Below, one piece after another: positions 1,629 to 46,364 of a stretch of DNA of 64,000 nucleotides. A model generated the notes under the pieces. It searched no databases. It was not told the DNA's origin and worked only from the letters and a program-made list of their open reading frames with translations. The first letter of the stretch is position 1. Every line of letters starts with the position of its first letter. The position numbers were made by a program, and so were the translations under genes. Origin of the DNA: an uncultured Rhodospirillaceae bacterium (GTDB taxonomy: Bacteria > Pseudomonadota > Alphaproteobacteria > UBA9219); the NCBI GenBank assembly GCA_964652235.1, contig CAZZDK010000002.1:38675-102674 (forward strand), read 5' to 3'.

Positions 1629-2825
1629 TTGAAGCAGGAATCCGGCCTCCTTAACGCGAGGTTTTCTTTGAATGGTCTGGCTCTATCTGCCGCCGGAGGC
1701 GATCACGCATGCCCAAAAGGGCGCGCGCTGTTCGGCCTCTCGCTCTGCGCGGGTGCGGGCGGGCTTGACCTCGGCCTCCACCTTGCGCTGCCAGACTATC
1801 GAACTGTTTGTTACGTTGAGCGGGAAAGCTACGCCGCATCCTCTCTCGTGGCGCGGATGGAAGACGAGGCCTTGGATCGCGCGCCTGTCTGGGACGATGT
1901 TAAAACCTTCCGAGGCAAAGCGTGGCGCGGCGCGGTGGATATCATCCATGGCGGTTATCCATGCCAGCCATTCTCGATTGCAGGCCGTCAACTTGGCGAC
2001 AAAGACCCGCGCCATCTCTGGCCGGATATCGCGCGGATCGTCCGCGAGATTAAACCGCCCATCTGCTTCTTTGAAAATGTCGGCGGACATTTACGACTGG
2101 GGTTCGAGCAAGTCCACGATGACCTTTGCCGCATGGGTTATCGCGTTAAGGCAGGGTTGTTTACGGCGGAGGAAGTCGGCGCGCCTCATAAACGTGAACG
2201 GTTGTTCATCTTGGCCTACCGTGAGGGTGTCTTCGGCGAACGGGGCCTCACGCAAAGAGATCTCGGCTGGGAACCCGAAGGGGCGGTTGGAAGTGAGCGC
2301 GCAGCTTTGGCTAACCCCGCGCGCGCAGGAGACGACCGAGAAGCAGGAGAGCTTCATAAGGCGCAACGGCGACCGGACGGATCGGTGCTTCGGGTCATTA
2401 ACGGCGCAGACGACGCGATGGCCGACGCCGCGCGCACAGGAGCCCGGAAGCACAAGCGTGGATCACGGCCTCAGCCTAACCGAGGCCAGCAAGGCATGGC
2501 CGACACCCCAATCGACGGATTACAGGGATCGGGGCAATCTCTCGAACCCATGCATCCAGCGGCGGATGGCCATGGGGAAGCAGGTCAACCTGTCCATGAT
2601 GGCGCATCCGATGGCGTACCAGTCTGGCCGCCAGCCCCAGCCAATCACAACGGATGGGAAGGAGTCCCAGCCAGTCTTAAACCCGCTGTTTGTCGAATGG
2701 CTGATGGGCTGGCCTATCGGGTGGACAGACTCCGTCTTTGCGGCAACGGCGTGGTGCCGTTGGTCGCGGCTTATGCGTTTTGCACTCTGGCAACTGAAGC
2801 CATCACAGAAAACGAAACAGAATGA
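1629..2825 (+). CDS. DNA (cytosine-5)-methyltransferase (Dcm family)
   Basis: Motif I LFGLSLCAGAGGLDLGL, catalytic PCQ motif GGYPCQPFSIAG, motif VI-like ENV (CFFENVGG); start codon uncertain (TTG at 1629 in ORF track). Confidence 0.8.
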   Translation: MKQESGLLNARFSLNGLALSAAGGDHACPKGRALFGLSLCAGAGGLDLGLHLALPDYRTVCYVERESYAASSLVARMEDEALDRAPVWDDVKTFRGKAWRGAVDIIHGGYPCQPFSIAGRQLGDKDPRHLWPDIARIVREIKPPICFFENVGGHLRLGFEQVHDDLCRMGYRVKAGLFTAEEVGAPHKRERLFILAYREGVFGERGLTQRDLGWEPEGAVGSERAALANPARAGDDREAGELHKAQRRPDGSVLRVINGADDAMADAARTGARKHKRGSRPQPNRGQQGMADTPIDGLQGSGQSLEPMHPAADGHGEAGQPVHDGASDGVPVWPPAPANHNGWEGVPASLKPAVCRMADGLAYRVDRLRLCGNGVVPLVAAYAFCTLATEAITENETE

Positions 2826-4051
2826 ACTCTTCAACGACGCATAGTCTTGCCAGCAAGATTGAGCTTTGGGATGTGGAAAGGCTTGTGCCTTATGCGAACA
2901 ATCCACGCACGCATTCGGAAACGCAGATTGCAAAGGTCGCGGCCAGCATCGCACGCTTCGGTTTTGTGAATCCCATCTTGGTGGACGCATCAGCCAATGT
3001 CATTGCAGGCCATGGGCGATTACAAGCGGCCAAGCAACTGGCTCTAAAGGAAGTGCCCGTCATTATCCTCGATCATTTGAACGAGGATGAGAAACGGGCT
3101 TACGTCATCGCCGACAATCAGTTGGCCCTTGAGGCCGGATGGGACGACGATCTGCTAAAAGCGGAACTGGGCGCGCTTGCGGAGGTAGATTTCGATTTAT
3201 CCGTCATCGGTTTTTCGGATAAAGAATTGGCAGAGCTTCTGGAAGGTCTGGAAGGCACAGAAGGCAACACGGACGATGATGCCGTGCCGGAAACGCCCAA
3301 CGATCCGAAAACAAAGCCCGGCGATATTTATGTCCTCGGCAATCACCGCTTGCTTTGCGGCGACAGCACGATTCTTGAAAACGTCGAGCGCGTCCTTGAC
3401 GGCGCGCTGGCCGATATGGTGTTCACGGATCCGCCCTACAACGTCGATTACGGCAATACTGCCAAGGACAAAATGCGCGGCAACAACCGCACGATTATGA
3501 ACGACAATCTTGGTGAAGGGTTTGAGGCGTTCCTTTACGATGCATGCGTCAATATGATCGCGGTCTGTAAAGGCGCGATCTATGTTTGCATGTCGTCCAG
3601 CGAATTGCACACGCTTCAAAAAGCCTTCATCGCAGCGGGCGGCAAATGGTCGACCTTCGTGATCTGGGCAAAGAACACTTTCACGTTGGGACGATCCGAC
3701 TACCAGCGTCAGTATGAGCCGATCCTCTACGGCTGGAAGCAAGGCACGGATCATTTCTGGTGCGGCGCGCGCGATCAAGGCGACGTGTGGTTCGTCAACA
3801 AGCCGACGAAGAACGATTTGCATCCGACCATGAAGCCCGTTGAACTTGTCGAACGCGCCGTCCGTAACAGCAGCAAGAGCCGTGACATCGTTCTGGATTG
3901 CTTCGGCGGCTCCGGCAGCACACTCATCGCTTGCGAGAAAACTGGCCGTCAAGCAAGGCTAATCGAATTGGATCCCAAATATTGCGACGTGATCGTTCAG
4001 CGATGGGAAGAGTTTACGGGCAAGAAGGCCGAGTTGGTCTCAGCGGATTAA
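2822..4051 (+). CDS. ParB-like nuclease domain fused to DNA N6-adenine/N4-cytosine methyltransferase (DPPY class)
   Basis: N-terminal ParB/Srx-like region (NPILVD...GHGR), catalytic DPPYNVDY motif, C-terminal FGGSGST motif; ATGA overlap with upstream MTase. Confidence 0.8.
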   Translation: MNSSTTHSLASKIELWDVERLVPYANNPRTHSETQIAKVAASIARFGFVNPILVDASANVIAGHGRLQAAKQLALKEVPVIILDHLNEDEKRAYVIADNQLALEAGWDDDLLKAELGALAEVDFDLSVIGFSDKELAELLEGLEGTEGNTDDDAVPETPNDPKTKPGDIYVLGNHRLLCGDSTILENVERVLDGALADMVFTDPPYNVDYGNTAKDKMRGNNRTIMNDNLGEGFEAFLYDACVNMIAVCKGAIYVCMSSSELHTLQKAFIAAGGKWSTFVIWAKNTFTLGRSDYQRQYEPILYGWKQGTDHFWCGARDQGDVWFVNKPTKNDLHPTMKPVELVERAVRNSSKSRDIVLDCFGGSGSTLIACEKTGRQARLIELDPKYCDVIVQRWEEFTGKKAELVSAD

Positions 4052-5983: not shown

Positions 5984-6520
5984 ATGGGAGTCAGTCAACG
6001 AGAATTCGCGGCGCTGTGGGGCAAAAGTCGCGGCGCGGTGCAAAAAGCCATCGCATCGGGCCGTATTTCGCCTGAAGCCGATGGGACAATCGATCCCGAC
6101 AAAGCTCTTGCTGCATTGCGCGTCAACACAGATCCTTCGCAGGTGCGCGGCAAGAAGCGCGTCCCGAAGGCGGCCATCCAATCGGTACAGGAAACGTTGC
6201 AGGAAGCGGGTCATGCCGTCAGCGGCGGGAACAATTTTGTTCAGGCGCGAACGGCAAACGAGGTTCTTAAGGCCCAAGAGCGCAAGCTGCGCGTTCAAAA
6301 GCTCAAAGGCGAATTAATTGATCGCTCTTTGGCGACGGCTCTTGTTTATCAGCTTGCGCGGCAAGAACGCGATGCTTGGCAGATGTGGCCAACCCGCGTG
6401 GCGGCGGCACTTGCCGCAGAAATCGGCGCGGACACGCACTGCGTGCAAACCGCCCTTGAGAAATTTGTGCGCGAGCATTTGGCGCAGCTTGCCGACATCC
6501 AGATCGATTTACGCGCATGA
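5984..6520 (+). CDS. Terminase small subunit (HTH)
   Basis: N-terminal HTH (REFAALWGKSRGAVQKAI), position immediately upstream of and overlapping large terminase. Confidence 0.5.
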   Translation: MGVSQREFAALWGKSRGAVQKAIASGRISPEADGTIDPDKALAALRVNTDPSQVRGKKRVPKAAIQSVQETLQEAGHAVSGGNNFVQARTANEVLKAQERKLRVQKLKGELIDRSLATALVYQLARQERDAWQMWPTRVAAALAAEIGADTHCVQTALEKFVREHLAQLADIQIDLRA

Positions 6521-8451
6521 TCGCCATTAATGAAACACTCGCCTCGTTCGACGGTGCGGACGAGCTTCTGCGCTTCTGGGCAAACGGCCTCACGCCCGAT
6601 CCCGATCACACGGTTTCGAGCTGGGCCGATGAAAACCGCATTCTCTCGCCGCGCGGCGCGAACGAAGCTGGGCCGTGGCGCACCGAGCGAACGCCTTACT
6701 TGCGCGAGATCATGGATTCATGGTCGCCATCTTCGCCTTATCAGCGCATCGTATTGATGAAAGGGGCGCAGCTTGGCGGCTCGGAATGCGGCAACAATTT
6801 CATCGGCTACGTTATTCATCACGCACCGGGGCCGATGCTGGCCGTGCAGCCGACCGTCGAACTTGCCCGGCGTTTTAGTCAGCAACGCATCGATCCTTTG
6901 ATCGAGGAAAGCGCCGTGCTGCGTGAACGCGTGGCACCTTCGCGGGCGCGGGACAGCGGCAACACGATTTTATCGAAGGAGTTTCCCGGCGGCATTCTGG
7001 TCATGACAGGCGCGAACAGCGCGGTCGGCCTGCGCTCGATGCCCGCACGGTATTTATTTCTGGACGAGATCGACGCCTATCCCGCAAGTGCAGGCGAAGA
7101 AGGCGATCCCGTCACGTTGGCCGAGGCGAGAACGCGTACCTTTTCATGGCGGCGTAAAGTGTTCTTGTGCTCCACGCCGACGATCAAAGGTATCTCGCGC
7201 ATCGAGCGGGAATATGAAGCCAGCGACAGGCGCAGATATTTCGTGCCGTGCCCCTTTTGCGGCCACAAACAAATCCTGCTGTTCGAGCGGCTGCGTTGGG
7301 AAAAAGGAAAGGCGGGAACCGTTGCCTATTATTGCGATGACTGCGAAGCGCGGATTGAGGAGCACCACAAGACGCGGATGCTGGCTGATGGAGAATGGCG
7401 GGCCGAGCGGGCGAGCGATGATCCTTTAACGGTCGGCTTTCATATCTCAAGCCTTTACTCGCCCTATGGCTGGCTGAGTTGGGAGCGGATCGCCCGCGAT
7501 TGGGACTCCTCGCAAGGAAAAGACGAAGCCATGAAAAGCTTCAAAAACAGCGTGCTTGGCGAGACATGGGCCGAGAGCGGCGAAGCGCCGGATTGGCAGG
7601 TTCTCTCGGATCGGTGCGAGGCTTACCGGATCGGAACGGTTCCCGCAAAAGGCTTGTTTCTTACAGCGGGCGCGGACGTTCAAAAAGACCGCATCGAGGT
7701 TGATATCTGGGCATGGGGGCGCGGCCTCGAAAGCTGGCTTGTCGAGCATATCGTCATTCACGGCGGGCCGGACGATCAATCGGCATGGCGGGCGATGACC
7801 GATCTGCTGGTACGGACATGGTCGCATGAAAACGGCCCCCGGCTCTCTATCGCCAAACTGGCTATCGACTCCGGCTTCGAGGCCCCTGCTGTCTACGCAT
7901 GGACACGGCGCATGGGCGCGGGCCAAGTGATCGCCGTCAAAGGCATGGAAAGCTTCAATCGCGCAAGCCCTGTCTCCGGTCCGACTTATGTTGATGCAAC
8001 AGAAGGCGGACGCAAGATCAAGCGCGGCGCGAAACTCTGGATCGTCGCGGGATCGACTTTCAAAACGGAGACCTATCGTTTCTTGCGCCTTGCACGTCCT
8101 ACCAGAGAAGAACTTCAGGAAGGCGCGGCCTTCCTTCCCGGCAGCGTCCATCTGCCGGACGGCATTGATACCGAATGGATCAAGCAGCTCACGGCGGAGC
8201 AGCTTGTGACCGTCAAAACCAAGCGAGGCTTCACGCGGCTTGAATGGCAGAAGCTGCGTGAACGTAACGAAGCGCTCGATTGCCGCGTTTACGCCCGCGC
8301 CGCTGCTTGGCTTCTTGGCATTGACCGATTTTCGGAAGGCAGATGGGCAAGTCTTGAGGCAAGCGTCCAGAGGGTGGCGGATCACGATGAAGAGACGCAG
8401 GTCAAGAAACCCCTTCCTGCCAGACGCGTTATTCGGAGCAGCTATCTATGA
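6517..8451 (+). CDS. Terminase large subunit (lambda gpA family)
   Basis: 644 aa, Walker A-like KGAQLGGSECG, size and synteny (small terminase - large terminase - gpW - portal). Confidence 0.8.
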   Translation: MIAINETLASFDGADELLRFWANGLTPDPDHTVSSWADENRILSPRGANEAGPWRTERTPYLREIMDSWSPSSPYQRIVLMKGAQLGGSECGNNFIGYVIHHAPGPMLAVQPTVELARRFSQQRIDPLIEESAVLRERVAPSRARDSGNTILSKEFPGGILVMTGANSAVGLRSMPARYLFLDEIDAYPASAGEEGDPVTLAEARTRTFSWRRKVFLCSTPTIKGISRIEREYEASDRRRYFVPCPFCGHKQILLFERLRWEKGKAGTVAYYCDDCEARIEEHHKTRMLADGEWRAERASDDPLTVGFHISSLYSPYGWLSWERIARDWDSSQGKDEAMKSFKNSVLGETWAESGEAPDWQVLSDRCEAYRIGTVPAKGLFLTAGADVQKDRIEVDIWAWGRGLESWLVEHIVIHGGPDDQSAWRAMTDLLVRTWSHENGPRLSIAKLAIDSGFEAPAVYAWTRRMGAGQVIAVKGMESFNRASPVSGPTYVDATEGGRKIKRGAKLWIVAGSTFKTETYRFLRLARPTREELQEGAAFLPGSVHLPDGIDTEWIKQLTAEQLVTVKTKRGFTRLEWQKLRERNEALDCRVYARAAAWLLGIDRFSEGRWASLEASVQRVADHDEETQVKKPLPARRVIRSSYL

Positions 8452-15881: not shown

Positions 15882-16230
15882 AGGCTCGCTGCAAATGGCA
15901 CTTTGGCGGCGGGCCTGATTATTGCGCTTCCTGCGCGGAGGCCAATCTTCCATGCAGCAAGGGGCTCCCCAACAAGGACGGGGAGCTATGCCCCTATTGC
16001 GCGAACGAGCCAAAAACAAACGAAGGATGGCAGGCATGGGACATCGCTCTGCGGTGCGCGGGGCAGCTTCGCATGACCAAGTTTGTCGTCATCGGCCTTG
16101 ACATGGGAGCGGCACTCAAGATCGGCGAAGCTCTTGGCTATGACCGAACGGGCTTAGCCGAGTTTCTTCCTTCCTGCGAGTCTGGCATGGTGTCAGCAAT
16201 CAACGCGAAAGTTAATGAGGGCTTAAAATG
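15531..16230 (+). CDS. Predicted -1 frameshift fusion product of the tail chaperone (gpGT-like), extension 15876-16230
   Basis: The -1 frame is open from the slippery heptamer to 16230 (about 116 extra codons) with no independent start; extension contains CxxC/CxxC pairs (DYCASC, LCPYC). Confidence 0.45.
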
Positions 16231-16251
16231 ATCCCTCACATCTTGGGATCA

Positions 16252-16995
16252 TCAGGCAATGTCAAGAATGAGGGCGCTATGATCCGAGAGGCCCGTTTCT
16301 CTTGGCGTGTGATCATAAGTGCATTTTGTCTCTTGAAACTTGTCCAAGAATTGCTTGTTTGCAAAAGCATGATCGATGCGAAAGCCGCTTTTTGATGAAC
16401 GCCAAGACCATTCCCGCGCGGTATCGCCATGTTCGTTGCGCCAAAGATCTGTGAGACGGCTCTTTCGGGTCAGATCCAAGAAAAGATCTTCGCAGGGAAA
16501 CTTTGTCGTCCCGTGCTCCTTATCCGTTGAACAGCAACCCGTATTCAAGTCGCCAAGGAGCAGGAAAGGTTTTCCTTGATGCTCTTTGGCCAGCTTGGCG
16601 CAGGCATGAAAAAACGGAACCTTTTTCTGGCCCAATGGAAAATAACAGGCGCACAGAGAAAAATGCGGAAAGTGGATAAAGCCCAGTTCCTTGGAACCAA
16701 AATCTGGCGATTGCACAGGATTGGCGCGGTGTTGATTGTTCTTTGAAGCAAAAAACACGCTGCTGGTTTTGCCTTTATCAAAGGCACAGAAGGGATGGAC
16801 GCAATATCCCAACCTTAAGAGGGCTACGATAAAATAGAATCCTGCTTCGCTGTATTTCCATTCCGACAGCACAATATGATCCGGCTCTTGTCTGCATAGC
16901 CATTCGACAATTTGGGGGGCTCTTTTGCCCCCACCCTGACAGACATTAAGCGAAACGATCCGTTCCACGAAATCACCACACATTCCAGAAGCCAC
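16252..16995 (-). CDS. Endonuclease/exonuclease/phosphatase (EEP) family protein, moron
   Basis: C-terminal LSDHSALILDI (EEP SDH motif), N-terminal SLNVCQGG; AT-rich relative to flanking tail genes; opposite strand. Confidence 0.55.
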   Translation of the reverse strand: MASGMCGDFVERIVSLNVCQGGGKRAPQIVEWLCRQEPDHIVLSEWKYSEAGFYFIVALLRLGYCVHPFCAFDKGKTSSVFFASKNNQHRANPVQSPDFGSKELGFIHFPHFSLCACYFPLGQKKVPFFHACAKLAKEHQGKPFLLLGDLNTGCCSTDKEHGTTKFPCEDLFLDLTRKSRLTDLWRNEHGDTAREWSWRSSKSGFRIDHAFANKQFLDKFQETKCTYDHTPRETGLSDHSALILDIA

Positions 16996-17030
16996 AAGGC
17001 TTCTTCCTTCTTGTTCGCAAGGAACTATAT

Positions 17031-19328
17031 ATGGTTGAGCGCAATCTTGCTATCCGCTTGTCCGTCATGGATGGCGGCAAGGTCAAGGCCGAACTCAAGG
17101 AAATTGGCGAGTCTGGCGAGAAATCGCTCAAAAAGATCGAGTTAGCCGGACAGCCCGCCTCCAAAGCCCTAAACGCCTTGAACGCCGTCGCCAATGACGT
17201 GAAAGGTGCGGCAGTCGGTCTTTCAAGCGGGATCGGGCCTCTCGGCTCCGCGTTGATGTCCATCGGCCCCGCTGGCCTTGCGGCGGCGGCAGGGATCGCG
17301 GCCATTGTGGGCATTGTGTCGGCGGGCACGCAGGCTCTTTTGGAAGAAGAAAAGGCAGCTAAGCGGCTTAATGCCGTGTTACAGGCCACGGGATACACGT
17401 CCGGTCTGACAGGCAATCAGATTGGTGATTTTGCCGAGGGTTTGGCAAAAGCAACAGGCGTTCAGGACGAAGCGATTACTTCTGCGGCGGCAACGCTGGC
17501 GGCCTATCGCTCTGTGTCAGGGGATGTCTTTACCGAAACCCTGAGACAAGCCGCCAATCTCAGCGCCGTGTTCGGCGGTGATCTAGACAGCAACGTGCAG
17601 GCTCTCGGCAAGGCGATGGAGATGCTGGCGGGCGGGCAAGCCGAAGGGTTGCGCAAGGCCTTCAAAGCCCTCAGCGGCCCGCAGGAAGATTTGATCAAAC
17701 GGCTGGCGGAGTCTGGGCGAGGCCTTGAAGCCCAGCAGGCGCTTCTTAAGGCTTTGGATAGTTCCTTGCACGATACCGCCGCCAATCTCGCCACGACTTC
17801 ATCCAAGATCGGCGTGGCTTGGGACGATTTGCTCAAGCATTTCGGGAATACAGGTCCGATCAACTGGGCCAAGAAGGAATTGTTAAGCCTTCTCGAAGGC
17901 ATGAACGATGCCCTGAAACCGGAAGATATTTCGGTCAAGCTCGCCGCGATGGTCAAGCAGCGCAATGCCATCCTCGCTTATGAGGAAAAGAACAAAGGAC
18001 GGTACGATTTTAACAGCGAGTTTCGCCGTCAGCAGCTTGAGAAGCTCAGCGCGGAAATCCCGATCCTTGAAAAAAAGGTCAGACTTGAAGACGAACTGCG
18101 CCAGAAGGCCACAGCCGCCGCCGCGCAGCAAGGGCGCGACGACGAGCTTCAACATGAGATCGCAAGCGAAGACAAACTGGTCGAACAGGCAAAGAAAGAG
18201 GAAGAAGCCAATCAAAAAATTGTCGATGATCTGAAACGCCAGTTACTCGGTCTTCGCAATGAACGACAGGCTTTTATCGAGCAAGCCCTTTCGCGCCTTT
18301 CCGACAACGCGGACGAAAGCAAAATCAGCCAGACCCGCGACATCGCCGGAAGGCTGTTCGATCAAAAGGCTTTTGCGGATGCGAAAAAGGTTCTTGATGA
18401 CCTTGCGCGCCAGATTGAAAAAACGACCGACAAGAAACAAGCCTTTGTCGATGAATATCTCGCAAAGCTTCCCAAGGGCATTTCCAAGGAGGTCATTGAC
18501 CGCACCAAGGAATGGGCCGCCGTCGCTTACGACCAGATCCAAGCGCGGGAAAAACTCGACAAGCTCAAAGAGGAAGGCAAACAGCTTACCGAGAGCGACA
18601 AAACAGCCACCGAAGGCTACGCCGATCAAGTCGCCAAGCTCAACGAGCTTCTGAACGCCGGAGCCATCAGCCAAAACATTTACAACCGCGCCAAAAGCAA
18701 AGCCGCCGAGCAGCTTTTGGCGGGGCGCACAGATCCACAGGCTGGAGCACTTCGGGCTTTTGCCTCCTATCAAAAGGAAGCCGAAAACACAGCGGGCGCG
18801 GTTGAAAAGGCTTTTGGCGAGGCCATGAAGGCAACCGAGGACGCGATTGTGAACATGGTCACGTCCGGCAAAATCAGCCTAAGCAGCTTAGGAGACTTTG
18901 CCGACAGCATTGTCGCCGACATCACGCGCATGTTTGTGCAGAAATCGATCACGGGGCCGCTCTTCAAAGCCCTGAGTGGCAGCATGGAAAGCGGCGGCTT
19001 CTTGGACAGCATCATGAGCGCCCTTTCTTTCCACGAGGGTGGCACGGTTGGCGAAACCTCGGCGCGGTTGATGGTTCCCTCTTATGTATTCGCAGGCGCG
19101 CCCCGTTACCACGGCGGCGGCATTGCGGGTCTGAAGCCCGACGAGGTTCCGGCTATCCTGCAACGCGGCGAGGAAGTCATTTCGAGAAAAGACAGAAAAA
19201 GCCGTTCCGCAGGCGTTAGTGTCGTCATGCACATCACAACCCCAGATGCGAACAGTTTTCGGGCCAGCCAAAGCCAGATCTCGGCGGAAGCGGCTCGTGG
19301 AATCAACAGGGCAAAGCGCAATTTATAG
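17031..19328 (+). CDS. Tail tape measure protein
   Basis: 765 aa, Ala/Gly-rich N-terminal TM-like region, long coiled-coil Glu/Lys/Gln-rich centre, position after G/GT. Confidence 0.7.
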   Translation: MVERNLAIRLSVMDGGKVKAELKEIGESGEKSLKKIELAGQPASKALNALNAVANDVKGAAVGLSSGIGPLGSALMSIGPAGLAAAAGIAAIVGIVSAGTQALLEEEKAAKRLNAVLQATGYTSGLTGNQIGDFAEGLAKATGVQDEAITSAAATLAAYRSVSGDVFTETLRQAANLSAVFGGDLDSNVQALGKAMEMLAGGQAEGLRKAFKALSGPQEDLIKRLAESGRGLEAQQALLKALDSSLHDTAANLATTSSKIGVAWDDLLKHFGNTGPINWAKKELLSLLEGMNDALKPEDISVKLAAMVKQRNAILAYEEKNKGRYDFNSEFRRQQLEKLSAEIPILEKKVRLEDELRQKATAAAAQQGRDDELQHEIASEDKLVEQAKKEEEANQKIVDDLKRQLLGLRNERQAFIEQALSRLSDNADESKISQTRDIAGRLFDQKAFADAKKVLDDLARQIEKTTDKKQAFVDEYLAKLPKGISKEVIDRTKEWAAVAYDQIQAREKLDKLKEEGKQLTESDKTATEGYADQVAKLNELLNAGAISQNIYNRAKSKAAEQLLAGRTDPQAGALRAFASYQKEAENTAGAVEKAFGEAMKATEDAIVNMVTSGKISLSSLGDFADSIVADITRMFVQKSITGPLFKALSGSMESGGFLDSIMSALSFHEGGTVGETSARLMVPSYVFAGAPRYHGGGIAGLKPDEVPAILQRGEEVISRKDRKSRSAGVSVVMHITTPDANSFRASQSQISAEAARGINRAKRNL

Positions 19329-19639
19329 GCCTGAACCCCGCACAAAAGCTTGTTTTCTGTTGACCAAAGAAGGGCTTACGTCCATTCTGTCCTTGCGGGC
19401 GGACGAAAGTCTATCCGCTGGGGTGTAGTTACCTCACGATGAACGGTATTTGCGTCACGTTACGGCGCTGCCAATCGGTCGTCTTCGTATGGCCGGGGGG
19501 CGGCGGCGGATTTTTGCGCAAGCAAAAGTCTGGATGTCCAAGCTTAGGCTAAAGGCCGTCGCAATCGTTTCATCGCGATTAACTAACCCCCGTGCCGCCC
19601 GATTTTCGGGCGGCGCCCACTCAAACAACGGGGAAACCG

Positions 19640-19804
19640 ATGAACAACATTAGCACCTTGCAACTCTGCGCTGACTTTTTGAAAGCCTATTTTGGCAATC
19701 CCACTATTCTGACACTTTTTGCTGTTCTCATTTTAGGTGTGGGCGTGAGCCTGCGCCTTAAGAAAATCGAGAAGACCATCCCGTCTATTCACAGAATTCG
19801 ATAA
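19640..19804 (+). CDS. Small membrane peptide (54 aa), moron
   Basis: ATG at 19640; one hydrophobic helix ILTLFAVLILGVGV; AT-rich. Confidence 0.3.
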   Translation: MNNISTLQLCADFLKAYFGNPTILTLFAVLILGVGVSLRLKKIEKTIPSIHRIR

Positions 19805-19827
19805 CCCAAATCGAGGCTAAGAAATTC

Positions 19828-20043
19828 ATGCGCATCAATCTGTTAGATCCAGCGTTTTCTGACTCTTATCAACGCCTGTCATTAGCACTTGCGGACACTA
19901 TACGAGCAAAAGGCTCATGCTGCCGTGAAGACATGGCGAACAACGGGTTCTCTGGCGATGAGATTCGCTCTTGCTGGAACATTGCATACGGGCTTGCTCA
20001 CGTCGAATTGATGGACAGCCGGAACGATGTCGTTCTGCATTGA
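19828..20043 (+). CDS. Small hypothetical protein (71 aa), moron
   Basis: ORF only. Confidence 0.25.
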   Translation: MRINLLDPAFSDSYQRLSLALADTIRAKGSCCREDMANNGFSGDEIRSCWNIAYGLAHVELMDSRNDVVLH

Positions 20044-20176
20044 ATTTCATGGATAAAAGAAGGTCTAACGACGATCTTGCCTTCATGGCTTAGCATGCGG
20101 TTAAATGGCGTAACGATAACAAAAAGGGCGGGCCGCCCCTTCGCGGCCATGCTTTCCTTTTACGAGAGAGTTCGAT

Positions 20177-20587
20177 ATGTCCTTGATCCATTGGAACAGC
20201 GAAATGAGTGTTGGGATTCCGTCTATCGACGCCCAGCATCAAAAACTTGTAGAGATGCTCAACAAGCTTCACGGCGCGACCTATCAGGGCAAAGGGCATG
20301 AAGTTGTCGGCGATACGTTGACGGGCTTAATGAACTACACGATTGAGCATTTTGCTTATGAAGAAAAACTCTTTCAGGAAACAAGCTATCCGGACGCTGA
20401 GGCTCATGCAGCTGAACATGCCACCTTAACCCGCAAAGTGATGGACATCCACGAAAAGTTCAAAAGCGGCGTGACAACAGCCTTGACGCAGGAAGTCCTT
20501 CTCTTCCTTGTCAACTGGGTCATGGATCACACGATGGACAGCGACAAAAAATACAGCGCGCATTTGATCGCTGCTGGGGTTCGATAA
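20177..20587 (+). CDS. Bacteriohemerythrin (HHE cation-binding domain)
   Basis: N-terminus IHWNSEMSVGIPSIDAQHQKL and H-x(n)-H-E / H...D iron ligands typical of hemerythrin. Confidence 0.7.
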   Translation: MSLIHWNSEMSVGIPSIDAQHQKLVEMLNKLHGATYQGKGHEVVGDTLTGLMNYTIEHFAYEEKLFQETSYPDAEAHAAEHATLTRKVMDIHEKFKSGVTTALTQEVLLFLVNWVMDHTMDSDKKYSAHLIAAGVR

Positions 20588-20609
20588 CCCCCAAGCCCAA
20601 GGATAAAAT

Positions 20610-21209
20610 ATGACCTTTCACGAAATCCGCTTCCCGGATGACATTGCCTATGGGGCAACGGGCGGGCCGGAATATCTGACCTCTGTCGTCTCGATGGCAT
20701 CCGGTTATGAACAACGCAATGCCAACTGGTCGGCGGCGCGCGGCAAGTGGAACGTGGCGTCCGGCTTGAAGCATCAAGCCCAACTTAACACGCTGATTGC
20801 CTTCTTTCGCGCACGCAAAGGAAAGGCTTACGGTTTCAGGTTCAAAGATTGGACGGATTACAAGGCAACTGCCCAAGCCCTCGGCGCAGGGGATGGGACG
20901 ACAAAGACCTTCCAATTCGTCAAAAGCTACACCTCCGGCGCGGACAGCGAAACACGCACAATCACAAAACCCGTCTTGGGAACCGTTGTTCCTTATCTCG
21001 GCGGCGTTAAACAAACGTCCGGTTGGTCGGTTAATACGGCAACGGGTTTGCTCTCCTTTGCGCTTGCTCCGGCGCAGGGTGTGGCGGTTACAGCAGATTT
21101 TGAGTTTGACGTGCCCGTGCGTTTTGATACCGACAGCATGGCTGTCAGCATTGAACAATTCGACCTTCACCAATGGTCGGACATCCCCGTTATAGAAATC
21201 CGCGTATAG
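20610..21209 (+). CDS. Distal tail protein, DUF2460 (GTA g12-like)
   Basis: Size and synteny with DUF2163 - NlpC/P60 - host specificity protein as in GTA-like tails. Confidence 0.5.
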   Translation: MTFHEIRFPDDIAYGATGGPEYLTSVVSMASGYEQRNANWSAARGKWNVASGLKHQAQLNTLIAFFRARKGKAYGFRFKDWTDYKATAQALGAGDGTTKTFQFVKSYTSGADSETRTITKPVLGTVVPYLGGVKQTSGWSVNTATGLLSFALAPAQGVAVTADFEFDVPVRFDTDSMAVSIEQFDLHQWSDIPVIEIRV

Positions 21210-45596: not shown

Positions 45597-46364
45597 ATGC
45601 AAACGCATCCGCGTTTTTTCTGCGCGCCGCCCGCGCCGCGCCGCATCGTCGCCGGGTTTTCCTACTTGCAGCGTATCGGCAAAGGCGCGCAAACGCGCGT
45701 CTGGTTTCCGCCGTCTTTGCAGGAGGACGCGATCGAATGGGCCGCCGTGCGGCAATTCGAGCTTTTTCAGGAAGCGGACAATCTTGTCATCGACGCGCTG
45801 GAGGTCTCGGAAATCAAACGTTCGTTCCAGGCCTGGGCGAAAATGCGTTCAGGCGGCTATCGCGTGACGATTCTGACGCTGGGCGCCTACGCGCCGCGCG
45901 CGGCAGAGGACGATCTTTATATCCTCGACCTTAAAATGCAGGAGGAAATCACGCGGCTGATTCATTTCCTTTATCTGAGCGAGCAGAGCGGTGCCGCCTC
46001 TTCTTTCCAGGAAGCCGCGCTTGAAAAAAATGATTGGCAGATGGAATCGGCCCTGCCCCACGTGGCTGAAGCGCTTGCGGTTCGCTCGCTTTTCAAGCCG
46101 GAAAAACAGCGGCTCGCGGAAAAGACTTTTTTTGAGATTCTGAAACGTCTTCCGCAGGACCGGATTTTGCATGAAATCGCCTTCGGCCTTTCCTTGCCGG
46201 ACGCCTCGAAGGAGAAAAATTGGGTTTACGTCGCCGGGGAAGAGCATCGCGCGGCCTCGTTCTTCGGTTCCTTGGGCGAAGTCATGGGCGAGCGTATTCA
46301 CGCGCATATGCGCGGCCATTATGATCGCTCCCGCCATTCTTTCGCGGCGTTAAAAGCGGCCTAG
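45597..46364 (+). CDS. Hypothetical protein
   Basis: 255-aa ORF, host-like GC. Confidence 0.4.
   Translation: MQTHPRFFCAPPAPRRIVAGFSYLQRIGKGAQTRVWFPPSLQEDAIEWAAVRQFELFQEADNLVIDALEVSEIKRSFQAWAKMRSGGYRVTILTLGAYAPRAAEDDLYILDLKMQEEITRLIHFLYLSEQSGAASSFQEAALEKNDWQMESALPHVAEALAVRSLFKPEKQRLAEKTFFEILKRLPQDRILHEIAFGLSLPDASKEKNWVYVAGEEHRAASFFGSLGEVMGERIHAHMRGHYDRSRHSFAALKAA

Follow-up and report, generated by a model that had tools for sequence, protein, structure and literature searches.

Introduction

The morons of lambda- and HK97-type phages sit as single promoter-gene-terminator units between conserved structural genes, and they are the closest described counterparts of the cassette analyzed here. 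This cassette lies in the tail module of a prophage within a 64,000-nucleotide (nt) stretch of DNA from an uncultured Rhodospirillaceae bacterium (GenBank assembly GCA_964652235.1, contig CAZZDK010000002.1, positions 38,675 to 102,674 of the forward strand), which we call the window and number from its first letter. It consists of a long structured RNA, a gene for a small membrane peptide (o54), a gene for a small orphan protein (o71), and a bacteriohemerythrin gene.

P1/P7 c4, P4 CI, and N15 CA are leader-encoded antisense immunity RNAs, and we compare the proposed action of the cassette RNA with theirs. For its fold, the closest described family is the small RNA (sRNA) sRNA-Xcc1 (Rfam RF02221). 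Transcript mapping in Xanthomonas found it as a stand-alone RNA of 88 nt (PMC2996969). In integron cassettes it precedes symE, a toxin gene (bioRxiv 10.1101/2025.06.18.660453), in APSE phages it precedes an ORF6N gene (bioRxiv 10.1101/2020.03.17.996009), and a Xylella genomic island has five tandem homologs (PMC12189769). PMC12189769 also cites a paper by Chen et al. (2011) whose title calls the RNA trans-acting. The hemerythrin is best compared with DcrH-Hr, a chemoreceptor domain of Desulfovibrio vulgaris (2avk, 2awc), and McHr of Methylococcus capsulatus (4xpx). A full-text literature search, judged by titles and abstracts, found no paper treating a phage-borne hemerythrin.

A hemerythrin cassette in a probable cargo slot of the tail module

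The first-pass annotation of the window had described an AT-richer segment, with a hemerythrin and two small open reading frames (ORFs), between the tape-measure gene and the DUF2460 distal-tail gene. This layout holds, with the following features:

17031–19328, plus strand: tape-measure gene (Pfam Tape_meas_lam_C, E = 9e-21), left border of the cargo slot
19329–20609: cassette block, between the tape-measure stop codon (19328) and the DUF2460 start codon (20610)
Between the tape-measure gene and o54: ~310 nt without a conserved ORF
19360–19388, plus strand: promoter-like site, TTGACC (19360–19365), a 17-nt spacer, and CATTCT (19383–19388)
~19394–19614, plus strand: conserved, covarying structured RNA of ~220 nt
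19640–19804, plus strand: o54, a 54-amino-acid (aa) single-pass membrane peptide with a basic C terminus
19828–20043, plus strand: o71, a 71-aa three-helix orphan protein
20077–20160, plus strand: o71-hemerythrin spacer with a weak promoter-like TTGCCT-N18-TTAAAT (20077–20106), an A-run, a GC hairpin (20126–20138), and a U-rich tail
20177–20587, plus strand: bacteriohemerythrin gene (136 aa; PF01814)
20610–21209, plus strand: DUF2460 distal-tail gene (PF09343, E = 2e-79), right border of the cargo slot

The interpretation that we favor, with fair though far from full confidence, is that the block is a moron cassette of two units, a putatively RNA-gated o54 and an o71/O2-binding hemerythrin pair, placed in a cargo slot of the tail module. 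To place the block in its family, 80 related loci were gathered with the DUF2460 protein as query, and the tape-measure C terminus and the cassette genes were mapped on them. In many of the closest relatives (e.g., L014, L018, L019, L025, L029, and L032–L040) the tape-measure and DUF2460 genes are separated by only 3–7 nt; the DUF2460 proteins of these relatives are 70–90% identical to ours and the tail genes are otherwise collinear, the block being absent from most of the closest relatives. Other relatives have a gap of 470–1,835 nt that holds unrelated genes, nearly always of lower GC content than the flanks. The cargoes that could be assigned, either with Pfam support or from reading translations only (no hidden Markov model [HMM]), are as follows:

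L009 and L010: DUF134 regulator (Pfam)
L015: GIY-YIG protein (Pfam)
L020: AIPR abortive-infection protein (Pfam)
L026: XRE regulator (Pfam)
L028: SDH/ClpP-like protease (Pfam)
L011 and L013: HAD- and GNAT-like ORFs (translations only)
L023: GNAT-like ORF (translations only)
L027: CDF transporter and MerR-like regulator (translations only)

Several orphan ORFs also occupy the slot (in the gaps of L009–L031), and the three-gene hemerythrin cassette itself recurs in L001, L002, L003, L022, and the IMG/VR contigs behind L089, L090, and L106. Since the slot is empty or differently filled in relatives, the junction appears to be a cargo hot spot and the block dispensable cargo. The comparison with related prophages that had been proposed as a check thus supports the earlier designation of the block as a moron, here meaning exchangeable accessory cargo in a recombination-prone slot. 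Two metagenome-assembled genomes carry several separate tail-module copies, each with different slot cargo: STD2_238 has six (L011, L012, L013, L019, L025, and L030) and STD2_72 has three (L009, L016, and L017), which may reflect either many related prophages in one genome or bins that mix strains.

Composition also sets the block apart. Its GC content is 0.500 (0.478 in the coding part), against a prophage mean (positions 1–29000) of 0.564 with a standard deviation of 0.025, which makes it the lowest-GC 1.28-kb segment of the prophage, with 0.7% of such segments equally low. The GC content at third codon positions (GC3) is 0.53–0.59 in the cassette and 0.61–0.71 in most structural genes. The compositional break that had been anticipated is therefore real yet modest, at ~2.5 standard deviations.

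Ratios of nonsynonymous to synonymous divergence (dN/dS) are 0.10–0.25 for o54 and 0.13–0.34 for o71 (both computed against copies 68–79% identical), 0.05–0.15 for the hemerythrin, and 0.03–0.12 for the distal-tail gene; the proportion of synonymous differences (pS) is 0.54–0.68, so that synonymous sites are at or near saturation. These ratios point to purifying selection on all three cassette genes and to o54 and o71 being real genes, as the first-pass annotation had supposed in listing a small membrane peptide and a small ORF. The constraint on the hemerythrin is at least equal to that on the distal-tail gene, while o54 and o71 are less constrained.

Like the morons of lambda- and HK97-type phages, the cassette is apparently dispensable, lower in GC content, placed between conserved structural genes, and equipped with a candidate promoter of its own. 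Unlike them, it combines three genes with a long structured RNA leader instead of a single promoter-gene-terminator unit, has no plus-strand terminator, is old and co-diverging with its phage, and sits in a slot that takes many cargoes.

A conserved structured RNA heads the cassette

A strong hairpin had been reported at 19598–19618, ahead of the small membrane ORF. The hairpin is real, but its coordinates were 4 nt off (19594–19614) and it is not a free-standing feature, being the last stem (P7) of the ~220-nt RNA, whose parts are listed here:

19395–19404 with 19409–19418, plus strand: P0
19420–19423 with 19432–19435, plus strand: P1
19426–19431 (UAGUUA) with 19580–19585 (UAACUA), plus strand: P1-loop pairing
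19437–19443 (CGAUGAA) with 19569–19575 (UUCAUCG), plus strand: P2
19452–19456 with 19464–19468, plus strand: P3
19476–19480 with 19491–19495, plus strand: P4
19494–19499 with 19587–19592, plus strand: outer helix (GCCGGRGG/CCYCCGGC in the alignment)
19500–19507 with 19555–19562, plus strand: P5
19509–19530, plus strand: lineage-specific inserted hairpin
19534–19540, plus strand: invariant AUGUCCA loop
19541–19543 with 19548–19550, plus strand: P6
19564–19566 with 19577–19579, plus strand: hairpin B
19594–19614, plus strand: P7 terminal hairpin, an 8-bp stem of GCCGCCCG (19594–19601) and CGGGCGGC (19607–19614) around the loop ATTTT

We aligned the 310-nt stretch from the hemerythrin-bearing phages together with two loci that lack hemerythrin, L031, which has the RNA and o54 alone, and L026, which has the RNA, o54, and an XRE gene. 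The alignment consists of invariant blocks with frame-breaking indels between them and compensatory changes in the helices. A protein-coding reading of the stretch was rejected, as the indels between lineages measure 1, 2, 5, 7, and 22 nt and no frame is kept. More diverged copies turned up when viral and metagenome contigs were scanned for DNA patterns and then searched with nhmmer. The pattern ATGTCCAANC...AGGNTAAAG matched 16 viral loci, in only two of which (L089 and L090) the RNA was confirmed, by nhmmer and the covariance model alike; nor was it confirmed in L147 and L148.

The covariation support for the structure is strong. RNAalifold finds compensatory changes in 16 of 51 pairs, and a covariance model (R1) built on a 150-position core recovered 19 copies, with the window copy at 48.8 bits (E = 2.5e-11). 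In the modeled structure 91.7% of the alignment cells pair and 31 of 37 pairs have changed on both sides, compared with 36–48% pairing in slid controls; in the full model, which has 47 pairs, 92.2% are paired and 35 are compensatory (slid controls, 37–46%). Three helices that lie outside the covariance model, namely, the P1-loop pairing, hairpin B, and the outer helix, covary too; the alignment was not fitted to them. Pairing per helix amounts to 93% for the outer helix, 99% for P5, 92% for P6, and 94% for hairpin B, with compensatory changes in each, and the P1-loop pairing takes the forms UUCAAAA/UUUUGAA, UAGAAA/UUUCUA, UGACAA/UUGUCA, and UAAGAA/UUCUUA elsewhere. The window RNA has a minimum free energy of −116 kcal/mol (z = −6.8), and G-U pairs occur on the plus strand only, which places the RNA on that strand. 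Two candidate elements were discarded along the way: a mini-hairpin GGUUnnnAACC, replaced by the better-supported P1-loop pairing, and a helix P2b (CGG/CCG), which fits fewer sequences than hairpin B does.

P7 is conserved with compensatory changes, e.g., CCAGCGG/CCGCTGG in relatives. No T-run follows it in the window; in members outside this phage group (L123, L145, L124, and L105), the stem is followed by a U-run and forms a true terminator. No match to GenBank phages or plasmids came from megablast with the tail region or from blastn with the RNA. Family members also adjoin ArdA, an integrase-like gene, type I restriction-modification genes, and an IS1595 transposase, contexts of a mobile or defense type. 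L105 has two tandem copies (6412–6556 and 6574–6733, ~160 nt apart), the first of which ends in a terminator, an arrangement that recalls the tandem sRNA-Xcc1 homologs of Xylella (PMC12189769). Some 2 kb 5′ of the copy in L145, beside an integrase-like gene, there is a sub-threshold group I intron match (RF00028; 1294–1478, plus strand, 39.9 bits against 50, E = 6e-7).

Through the tape-measure 3′ end (96% identity at the tape-measure C terminus) and the RNA, the window is nearly identical to L022. Directly after P7 (19594–19620 against L022 4982–5010) they diverge abruptly, identity being 79% for o54, 72% for o71, 86% for the hemerythrin, and 82% for DUF2460, a pattern that suggests a recombination breakpoint at the RNA 3′ end. 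Among the 80 related prophage loci, moreover, the RNA occurs only where o54 follows. On account of this restriction and of the drop in identity after P7, the RNA and o54 appear to behave as one module and o71 and the hemerythrin as another.

The peptide o54 has one hydrophobic segment (residues ~21–38; hydropathy peak of 2.48 at residues 22–38), read as a single transmembrane segment, and a basic tail. Neither Pfam nor PHROG has a family that matches it, and it resembles no known toxin family in sequence. o71 is modeled by AlphaFold2 (AF2) with three helices (pLDDT 76) and has no Pfam, PHROG, or PDB fold match. A profile search found ~95 remote relatives of o71 (cluster representatives), which are stand-alone or form a C-terminal domain; none of the ten that were scanned has a credible Pfam match. 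Their common domain of ~50 aa (F-x-P-C-Q-R-M-A...K-G-x-C...G-F-S-x-E-E-I...W-x-M-A-Y-x-L-A-x-V-E-L; proteins P0035–P0127) occurs alone or at the C terminus of proteins of 115–235 aa. The spacer of 133 nt between o71 and the hemerythrin gene is conserved in five phage copies and missing from the chromosomal homolog, and its GC hairpin was read by the scan tool as a minus-strand terminator.

The RNA as an extended relative of sRNA-Xcc1

On the window copy, an Rfam search at a permissive E of ≤5 returned no match to sRNA-Xcc1, the only entry being a chance sau-13 on the wrong strand. Its relatives are more informative: L003, L117, L123, L129, L145, and L115 have co-located matches to RF02221, all below the gathering score of 53 at 29.6–38.9 bits (L003, when searched by itself, reaches E = 1.2e-5). 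The two RNAs share the architecture of the 3′ domain, in which an outer helix surrounds a long hairpin, whose inner stem is of the GNRA type, and a short second hairpin, and both reside on mobile elements directly 5′ of a co-oriented gene (25 nt before o54 in the window). The differences are that the window copy has an inserted hairpin of 24 nt and scores below threshold, that the RNA here is ~220 nt long and includes elements missing from the Rfam model, namely, a 5′ domain (P0, P1, P3, and P4) and two long-range pairings, and that its next gene encodes a small membrane peptide and not an antirepressor or symE. We regard the 3′ domain of the window RNA as a divergent sRNA-Xcc1-type fold, a sub-threshold relative, and the whole leader, with strong support from covariation, as a probable extended variant of this known mobile-element RNA family.

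The canonical members are instructive in this respect. Of the GenBank phage records, 137 match the Rfam consensus, and most of these are Stx-converting phages. We inspected five annotated regions. In four of them, from Aaphi23, Moraxella Mcat16, a Bordetella phage, and Stx2 phage F039 (whose record names the element "sRNA-Xcc1"), an antirepressor gene, or the unannotated equivalent of one, follows the element in the same orientation at a distance of 40–60 nt. Phage P13374 is the exception: there the gene that comes next carries the label "antitermination," and the annotation places a small "antB" ORF on top of the element. The 5′ extension is present in the canonical phage copies as well, and consists there of a promoter of the TTGACA type, a hairpin resembling P1 with a loop that matches the strand 3′ of hairpin B, and a further strand with complementarity to the loop of hairpin B. 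Thus, the conserved RNA is apparently larger than the part that the Rfam model describes. In Aaphi23 (L159, 2340–2380), a hairpin with a T-run overlaps a promoter-like TTGACA-N17-TTAGTA just after the Q antiterminator gene, and the sRNA-Xcc1-type leader there occupies what we take to be the position of the lambda PR′/6S-tR′ region.

The window has a comparable promoter-like site. Both hexamers of TTGACC-N17-CATTCT are invariant and the spacer is variable in copies whose synonymous sites are at or near saturation, and the canonical sRNA-Xcc1 copies in GenBank phages have TTGACA-type sites at the same position. From this pattern we infer a promoter function; own promoter-like sites would allow the cassette to be expressed in lysogeny.

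Possible antisense gating of o54

The heptamer that forms the 5′ strand of P2 has an exact second copy at the start of o54:

19638–19644, plus strand: CGAUGAA over the o54 start codon, an exact copy of the P2 5′ strand (19437–19443)

This copy, too, is complementary to the hairpin-B loop UUCAUCG (19569–19575). In several lineages, the heptamer or octamer complementary to the hairpin-B loop is found a second time where translation of the following gene begins: in the window and L022 it is CGAUGAA and spans the o54 AUG, and in P13374 (CAAGUAG), Stx2 F039 (CUUCAAAG), Mcat16 (CAGAAAA), and Aaphi23 (CAAACAG) the second seed copy overlaps the Shine-Dalgarno sequence of the downstream gene. By our own estimate, a heptamer would recur by chance in a 40-nt start window with a probability of ~0.002 per lineage, and the recurrence is seen in 5 of ~10 independent lineages.

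This arrangement resembles that of c4, CI, and CA in that the RNA lies in the leader of the operon to be controlled, that its loop has two complementary sequences, one farther 5′ in the transcript and one at the ribosome-binding region of the gene that follows, and that the gene that sRNA-Xcc1 would control in known phages is an antirepressor. It differs in that the window RNA shows no sequence or covariance-model similarity to C4 (RF01695, which found no match at permissive thresholds in the window or in seven homologous loci) and in that only one of the two window seeds matches the o54 start. By analogy, the pairing of the loop heptamer with both the extension and the o54 start suggests c4-like antisense gating. 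The hairpin-B loop and the adjacent single strand pair with the 5′ domain of the same transcript, which would serve as a built-in target mimic, and the RNA would gate o54 translation as P1 c4, P4 CI, and N15 CA gate theirs. o54 would then be a dosage-sensitive membrane effector, either exclusion or toxin-like.

It is tempting to extend this proposal to the family. sRNA-Xcc1 could be the 3′ domain of a leader RNA of ~170–220 nt that is widespread in temperate phages and mobile elements and that acts as a c4-like switch, here at the head of a hemerythrin cassette. Two exposed seeds would be held by the covarying 5′ "target-mimic" domain and, once released, would occlude the ribosome-binding site of the adjacent gene. 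The gated gene would be an antirepressor in the Stx, Aaphi23, and Moraxella phages and a membrane peptide here, the switch being unrelated in sequence to c4; in this prophage lineage it would have been co-opted to head a cassette whose hemerythrin reprograms the oxygen sensing or aerotaxis of the lysogen. We put this combined proposal forward tentatively and consider it doubtful as a whole.

A DcrH/McHr-type hemerythrin linked to chemoreceptors in relatives

The assignment of the third gene as a clear hemerythrin with an HHE ligand pattern is borne out by HMM, ligands, and fold alike. PF01814 matches residues 13–126 at 50.1 bits (cutoff, 25.3; E = 5e-13), confirming the HHE-domain match, and the seven diiron ligands H21, H58, E62, H77, H81, H118, and D123 (pattern H...HxxxE...HxxxH...HxxxxD) are invariant or nearly so in 16 homologs and align to DcrH-Hr. 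The best PDB sequence match is DcrH-Hr (E = 4e-22), and McHr matches at E = 5e-17. The AF2 model (pLDDT 92.9) is an up-down four-helix bundle with helices at residues 15–36, 40–69, 74–96, and 103–122, and Foldseek superimposes it on DcrH-Hr with TM-scores of 0.89–0.91 (root mean square deviation, 1.5–2.0 Å) and on McHr with TM-scores of 0.84–0.87. Sequence and fold thus provide strong evidence for a predicted DcrH/McHr-type diiron O2-binding protein. With DcrH-Hr and McHr it shares the HHE domain, the ligands, and the bundle at 32–34% identity, as well as relatives linked to methyl-accepting chemoreceptors; it differs from them as a stand-alone protein of 136 aa in a prophage tail module, beside an orphan protein of 71 aa, for which O2 binding is predicted.

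The chemoreceptor linkage recurs among cellular and phage relatives. The closest cellular homologs (70% and 60% identity) lie in ordinary chromosomal neighborhoods, and a homolog with 49% identity (P0010) directly follows a soluble chemoreceptor gene. In L004–L006, a 74%-identical hemerythrin lies directly 3′ of a chemoreceptor with 4HB_MCP, HAMP, and MCPsignal domains and a C-terminal Hemerythrin domain (gene coordinates 2–2152 in L004, 180–2336 in L005, and 1–747 in L006). A reading of this 716- to 718-aa protein as a tape measure with spurious coiled-coil matches was rejected; it is a true chemoreceptor. In L004, DUF2460 directly follows the hemerythrin, an adjacency taken from a single 3-kb contig. 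Because this is the same hemerythrin-DUF2460 junction as in the window, a sister phage appears to carry a hemerythrin chemoreceptor and a hemerythrin in the same slot. All relatives with a hemerythrin, including the chemoreceptor variant, have a homologous spacer between it and DUF2460.

As phage cargo, hemerythrin is rare: a homolog occurs in 2 of 50,697 GenBank phage records, PHROG has no match for it, and of the eight hemerythrin loci found in IMG/VR two belong to the lineage of the window. The first-pass annotation had proposed sensing of O2, NO, or iron, or protection conferred on the lysogen. We infer a role of this kind from the known roles of the family and from the chemoreceptor linkage. 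The hemerythrin would bind O2 in the lysogen or the infected cell, most likely as an O2 sensor or buffer that would feed aerotaxis or protect respiration, since cellular and phage relatives are repeatedly coupled to chemoreceptors.

Discussion

Several observations weigh against our preferred interpretation of the block as a moron cassette with a gated o54 and an O2-binding hemerythrin. Cassette and flanking tail gene have the same degree of synonymous divergence, so that the cassette is an old resident and not a fresh acquisition. The promoter-like site has a score of 8 out of 12, too low for the consensus scan, which did not report it, and a terminator scan found no plus-strand intrinsic terminator in the cassette, which may be a mere part of the late transcript. 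As for the RNA, the window copy has no Rfam match and its relatives fall below the curated RF02221 threshold, and a competing long hairpin also covaries, so that the core fold may switch. Seed-start complementarity is perfect only in window-type RNA; it amounts to 6 bp with one G-U in L003, is weak in L031, and is absent in L115, L117, L124, and L129, and the unrestricted RNAduplex energy between the RNA and the o54 start is no better than that of shuffles (z near 0). Finally, the window cassette lacks a chemoreceptor gene, and the known roles of hemerythrins are several, with sensing, O2 buffering, oxidative-stress protection, and iron handling equally compatible.

Some of these observations would be expected if the block were a late-expressed auxiliary set with no independent transcription, in which the hemerythrin would sustain or protect host respiration during virion production and the RNA would be a structured spacer. 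We consider this unlikely, yet it deserves to be weighed. The cassette is oriented as the tail genes are, no plus-strand hairpin with a U-tract occurs in it, and P7 has lost the U-run that is present in members outside this phage group; given this co-orientation and the missing terminator, late transcription can read through the cassette. The hemerythrin stop codon, furthermore, lies 22 nt before the DUF2460 start with only a Shine-Dalgarno sequence between, and the match in synonymous divergence between cassette and tail gene fits as well. However, the promoter-like hexamers are invariant directly 5′ of the RNA, at the position where canonical relatives have TTGACA-type promoters, a mere spacer would not retain 35 covarying pairs, and a slot that is empty in many relatives implies contents that are unneeded for lytic growth. 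An even closer tie to the virion, with the block as an integral component of tail assembly (e.g., small tail chaperones and a metal-binding tail protein), strikes us as highly improbable. The position inside the tail module and a purifying selection on the hemerythrin (0.05–0.15) at least as strong as that on the distal-tail gene (0.03–0.12) would suit it, but o54 and o71 are less constrained than either, most of the closest relatives lack the block while their tail genes are otherwise collinear, and the fold and nearest homologs of the hemerythrin are those of cytoplasmic O2-binding proteins, the closest cellular ones being chromosomal.

Other readings concern the RNA and its partner. The RNA and o54 could form a toxin-antitoxin-like or abortive-infection module that serves prophage stability or phage exclusion, with the hemerythrin and o71 as chance passengers, a possibility that we rate as real though on the unlikely side. 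The occurrence of the RNA and o54 without hemerythrin in L031 (alone) and L026 (with the XRE regulator) and the fall of window/L022 identity right after P7, which separates the modules, are consistent with it, as are the resemblance of o54 to type I toxins in size (<60 aa) and hydrophobicity, the defense-type cargo (AIPR and SDH protease) in the same slot of relatives, and the position of sRNA-Xcc1 ahead of symE in integrons (bioRxiv 10.1101/2025.06.18.660453). What speaks against such a module is that the RNA is co-directional with and 5′ of o54, whereas a type I antitoxin is antisense or overlapping, that o54 has no detectable family, and that many members of the RNA family precede ordinary secreted proteins, lipoproteins, and regulators. 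The RNA might, alternatively, be an independent trans-acting sRNA on host mRNAs whose place 5′ of o54 is incidental, as could be surmised from the 88-nt stand-alone transcript in Xanthomonas (PMC2996969), from the word trans-acting in the Chen et al. (2011) title that PMC12189769 cites, and from the several family members that end in a true intrinsic terminator. We find this improbable: the element keeps a constant place 40–60 nt 5′ of a co-oriented gene in every annotated phage examined, seed-complementary sequence recurs at the Shine-Dalgarno sequence or AUG of that gene, and the terminal stem in the window has no U-tract. Our preference remains with the moron cassette of two units in the tail cargo slot.

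Prophage context and other features of the window

The prophage reading of the first-pass annotation, with a tail module at this place, is confirmed by the identification of lambda-type head genes and of tail genes like those of phiJL001 and of gene transfer agents (GTAs). The further features of the window are as follows:

1–29000: temperate siphovirus prophage (~29 kb) with lambda-type head genes and a phiJL001/GTA-type tail tip
near 28.1–28.8 kb: endolysin-like gene

The head genes encode a large terminase (gpA), a lambda-family portal, an S49 protease, and capsid E; downstream of a tail tube gene come the tip genes for DUF2460, a Gp84_N+BR0599 hub, and Phage-tail_3/Rcc01698_C. The prophage then gives way to ordinary cellular genes, among them ClpB, whose best named relatives belong to metagenome-assembled genomes of uncultured Alphaproteobacteria, some of them labeled Bdellovibrionales, and no tRNA that would mark an attachment site was found in the window. 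A reading of the element as a GTA was rejected on the full lambda-type terminase, portal, protease, and capsid, the 765-aa tape measure, the endolysin-type lysis gene, and the length of ~29 kb.

Between the tail-chaperone region and the tape-measure gene, inside a low-GC stretch (16100–17000), a 247-aa ORF on the minus strand (16252–16995; GC 0.484, GC3 0.50) has a weak Endonuclease/Exonuclease/phosphatase match (E = 7e-6) and a PHROG "endonuclease" match (E = 9e-9); it is probably what the first-pass annotation had counted as a first moron block. The prophage early region encodes a 409-aa protein (2822–4051, plus strand) in which a ParB N-terminal domain is fused to an N6/N4 DNA methylase domain. 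The host part of the window contains a TPP riboswitch (RF00059; 45512–45606, plus strand; 70.3 bits, above the gathering score), just 5′ of an ORF that starts near 45597.

Implications

The tape-measure/distal-tail junction is a well-sampled hot spot and should be useful for mining accessory functions; proteins of a defense type, ORFs that resemble transporters or regulators, and oxygen-binding proteins are all among its contents. Annotations of sRNA-Xcc1 exist in medically relevant phages, Stx-converting ones included, and the 5′ extension, the two covarying long-range pairings, and the seed copy at the ribosome-binding site offer a testable model for how antirepressor-type genes may be gated. 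Hemerythrin, for its part, is almost unrecorded as phage cargo, and a lineage that keeps one under strong purifying selection, with one member that appears to carry a hemerythrin chemoreceptor too, is a concrete lead. Such cargo suggests that phages can change the oxygen sensing or handling of their hosts.

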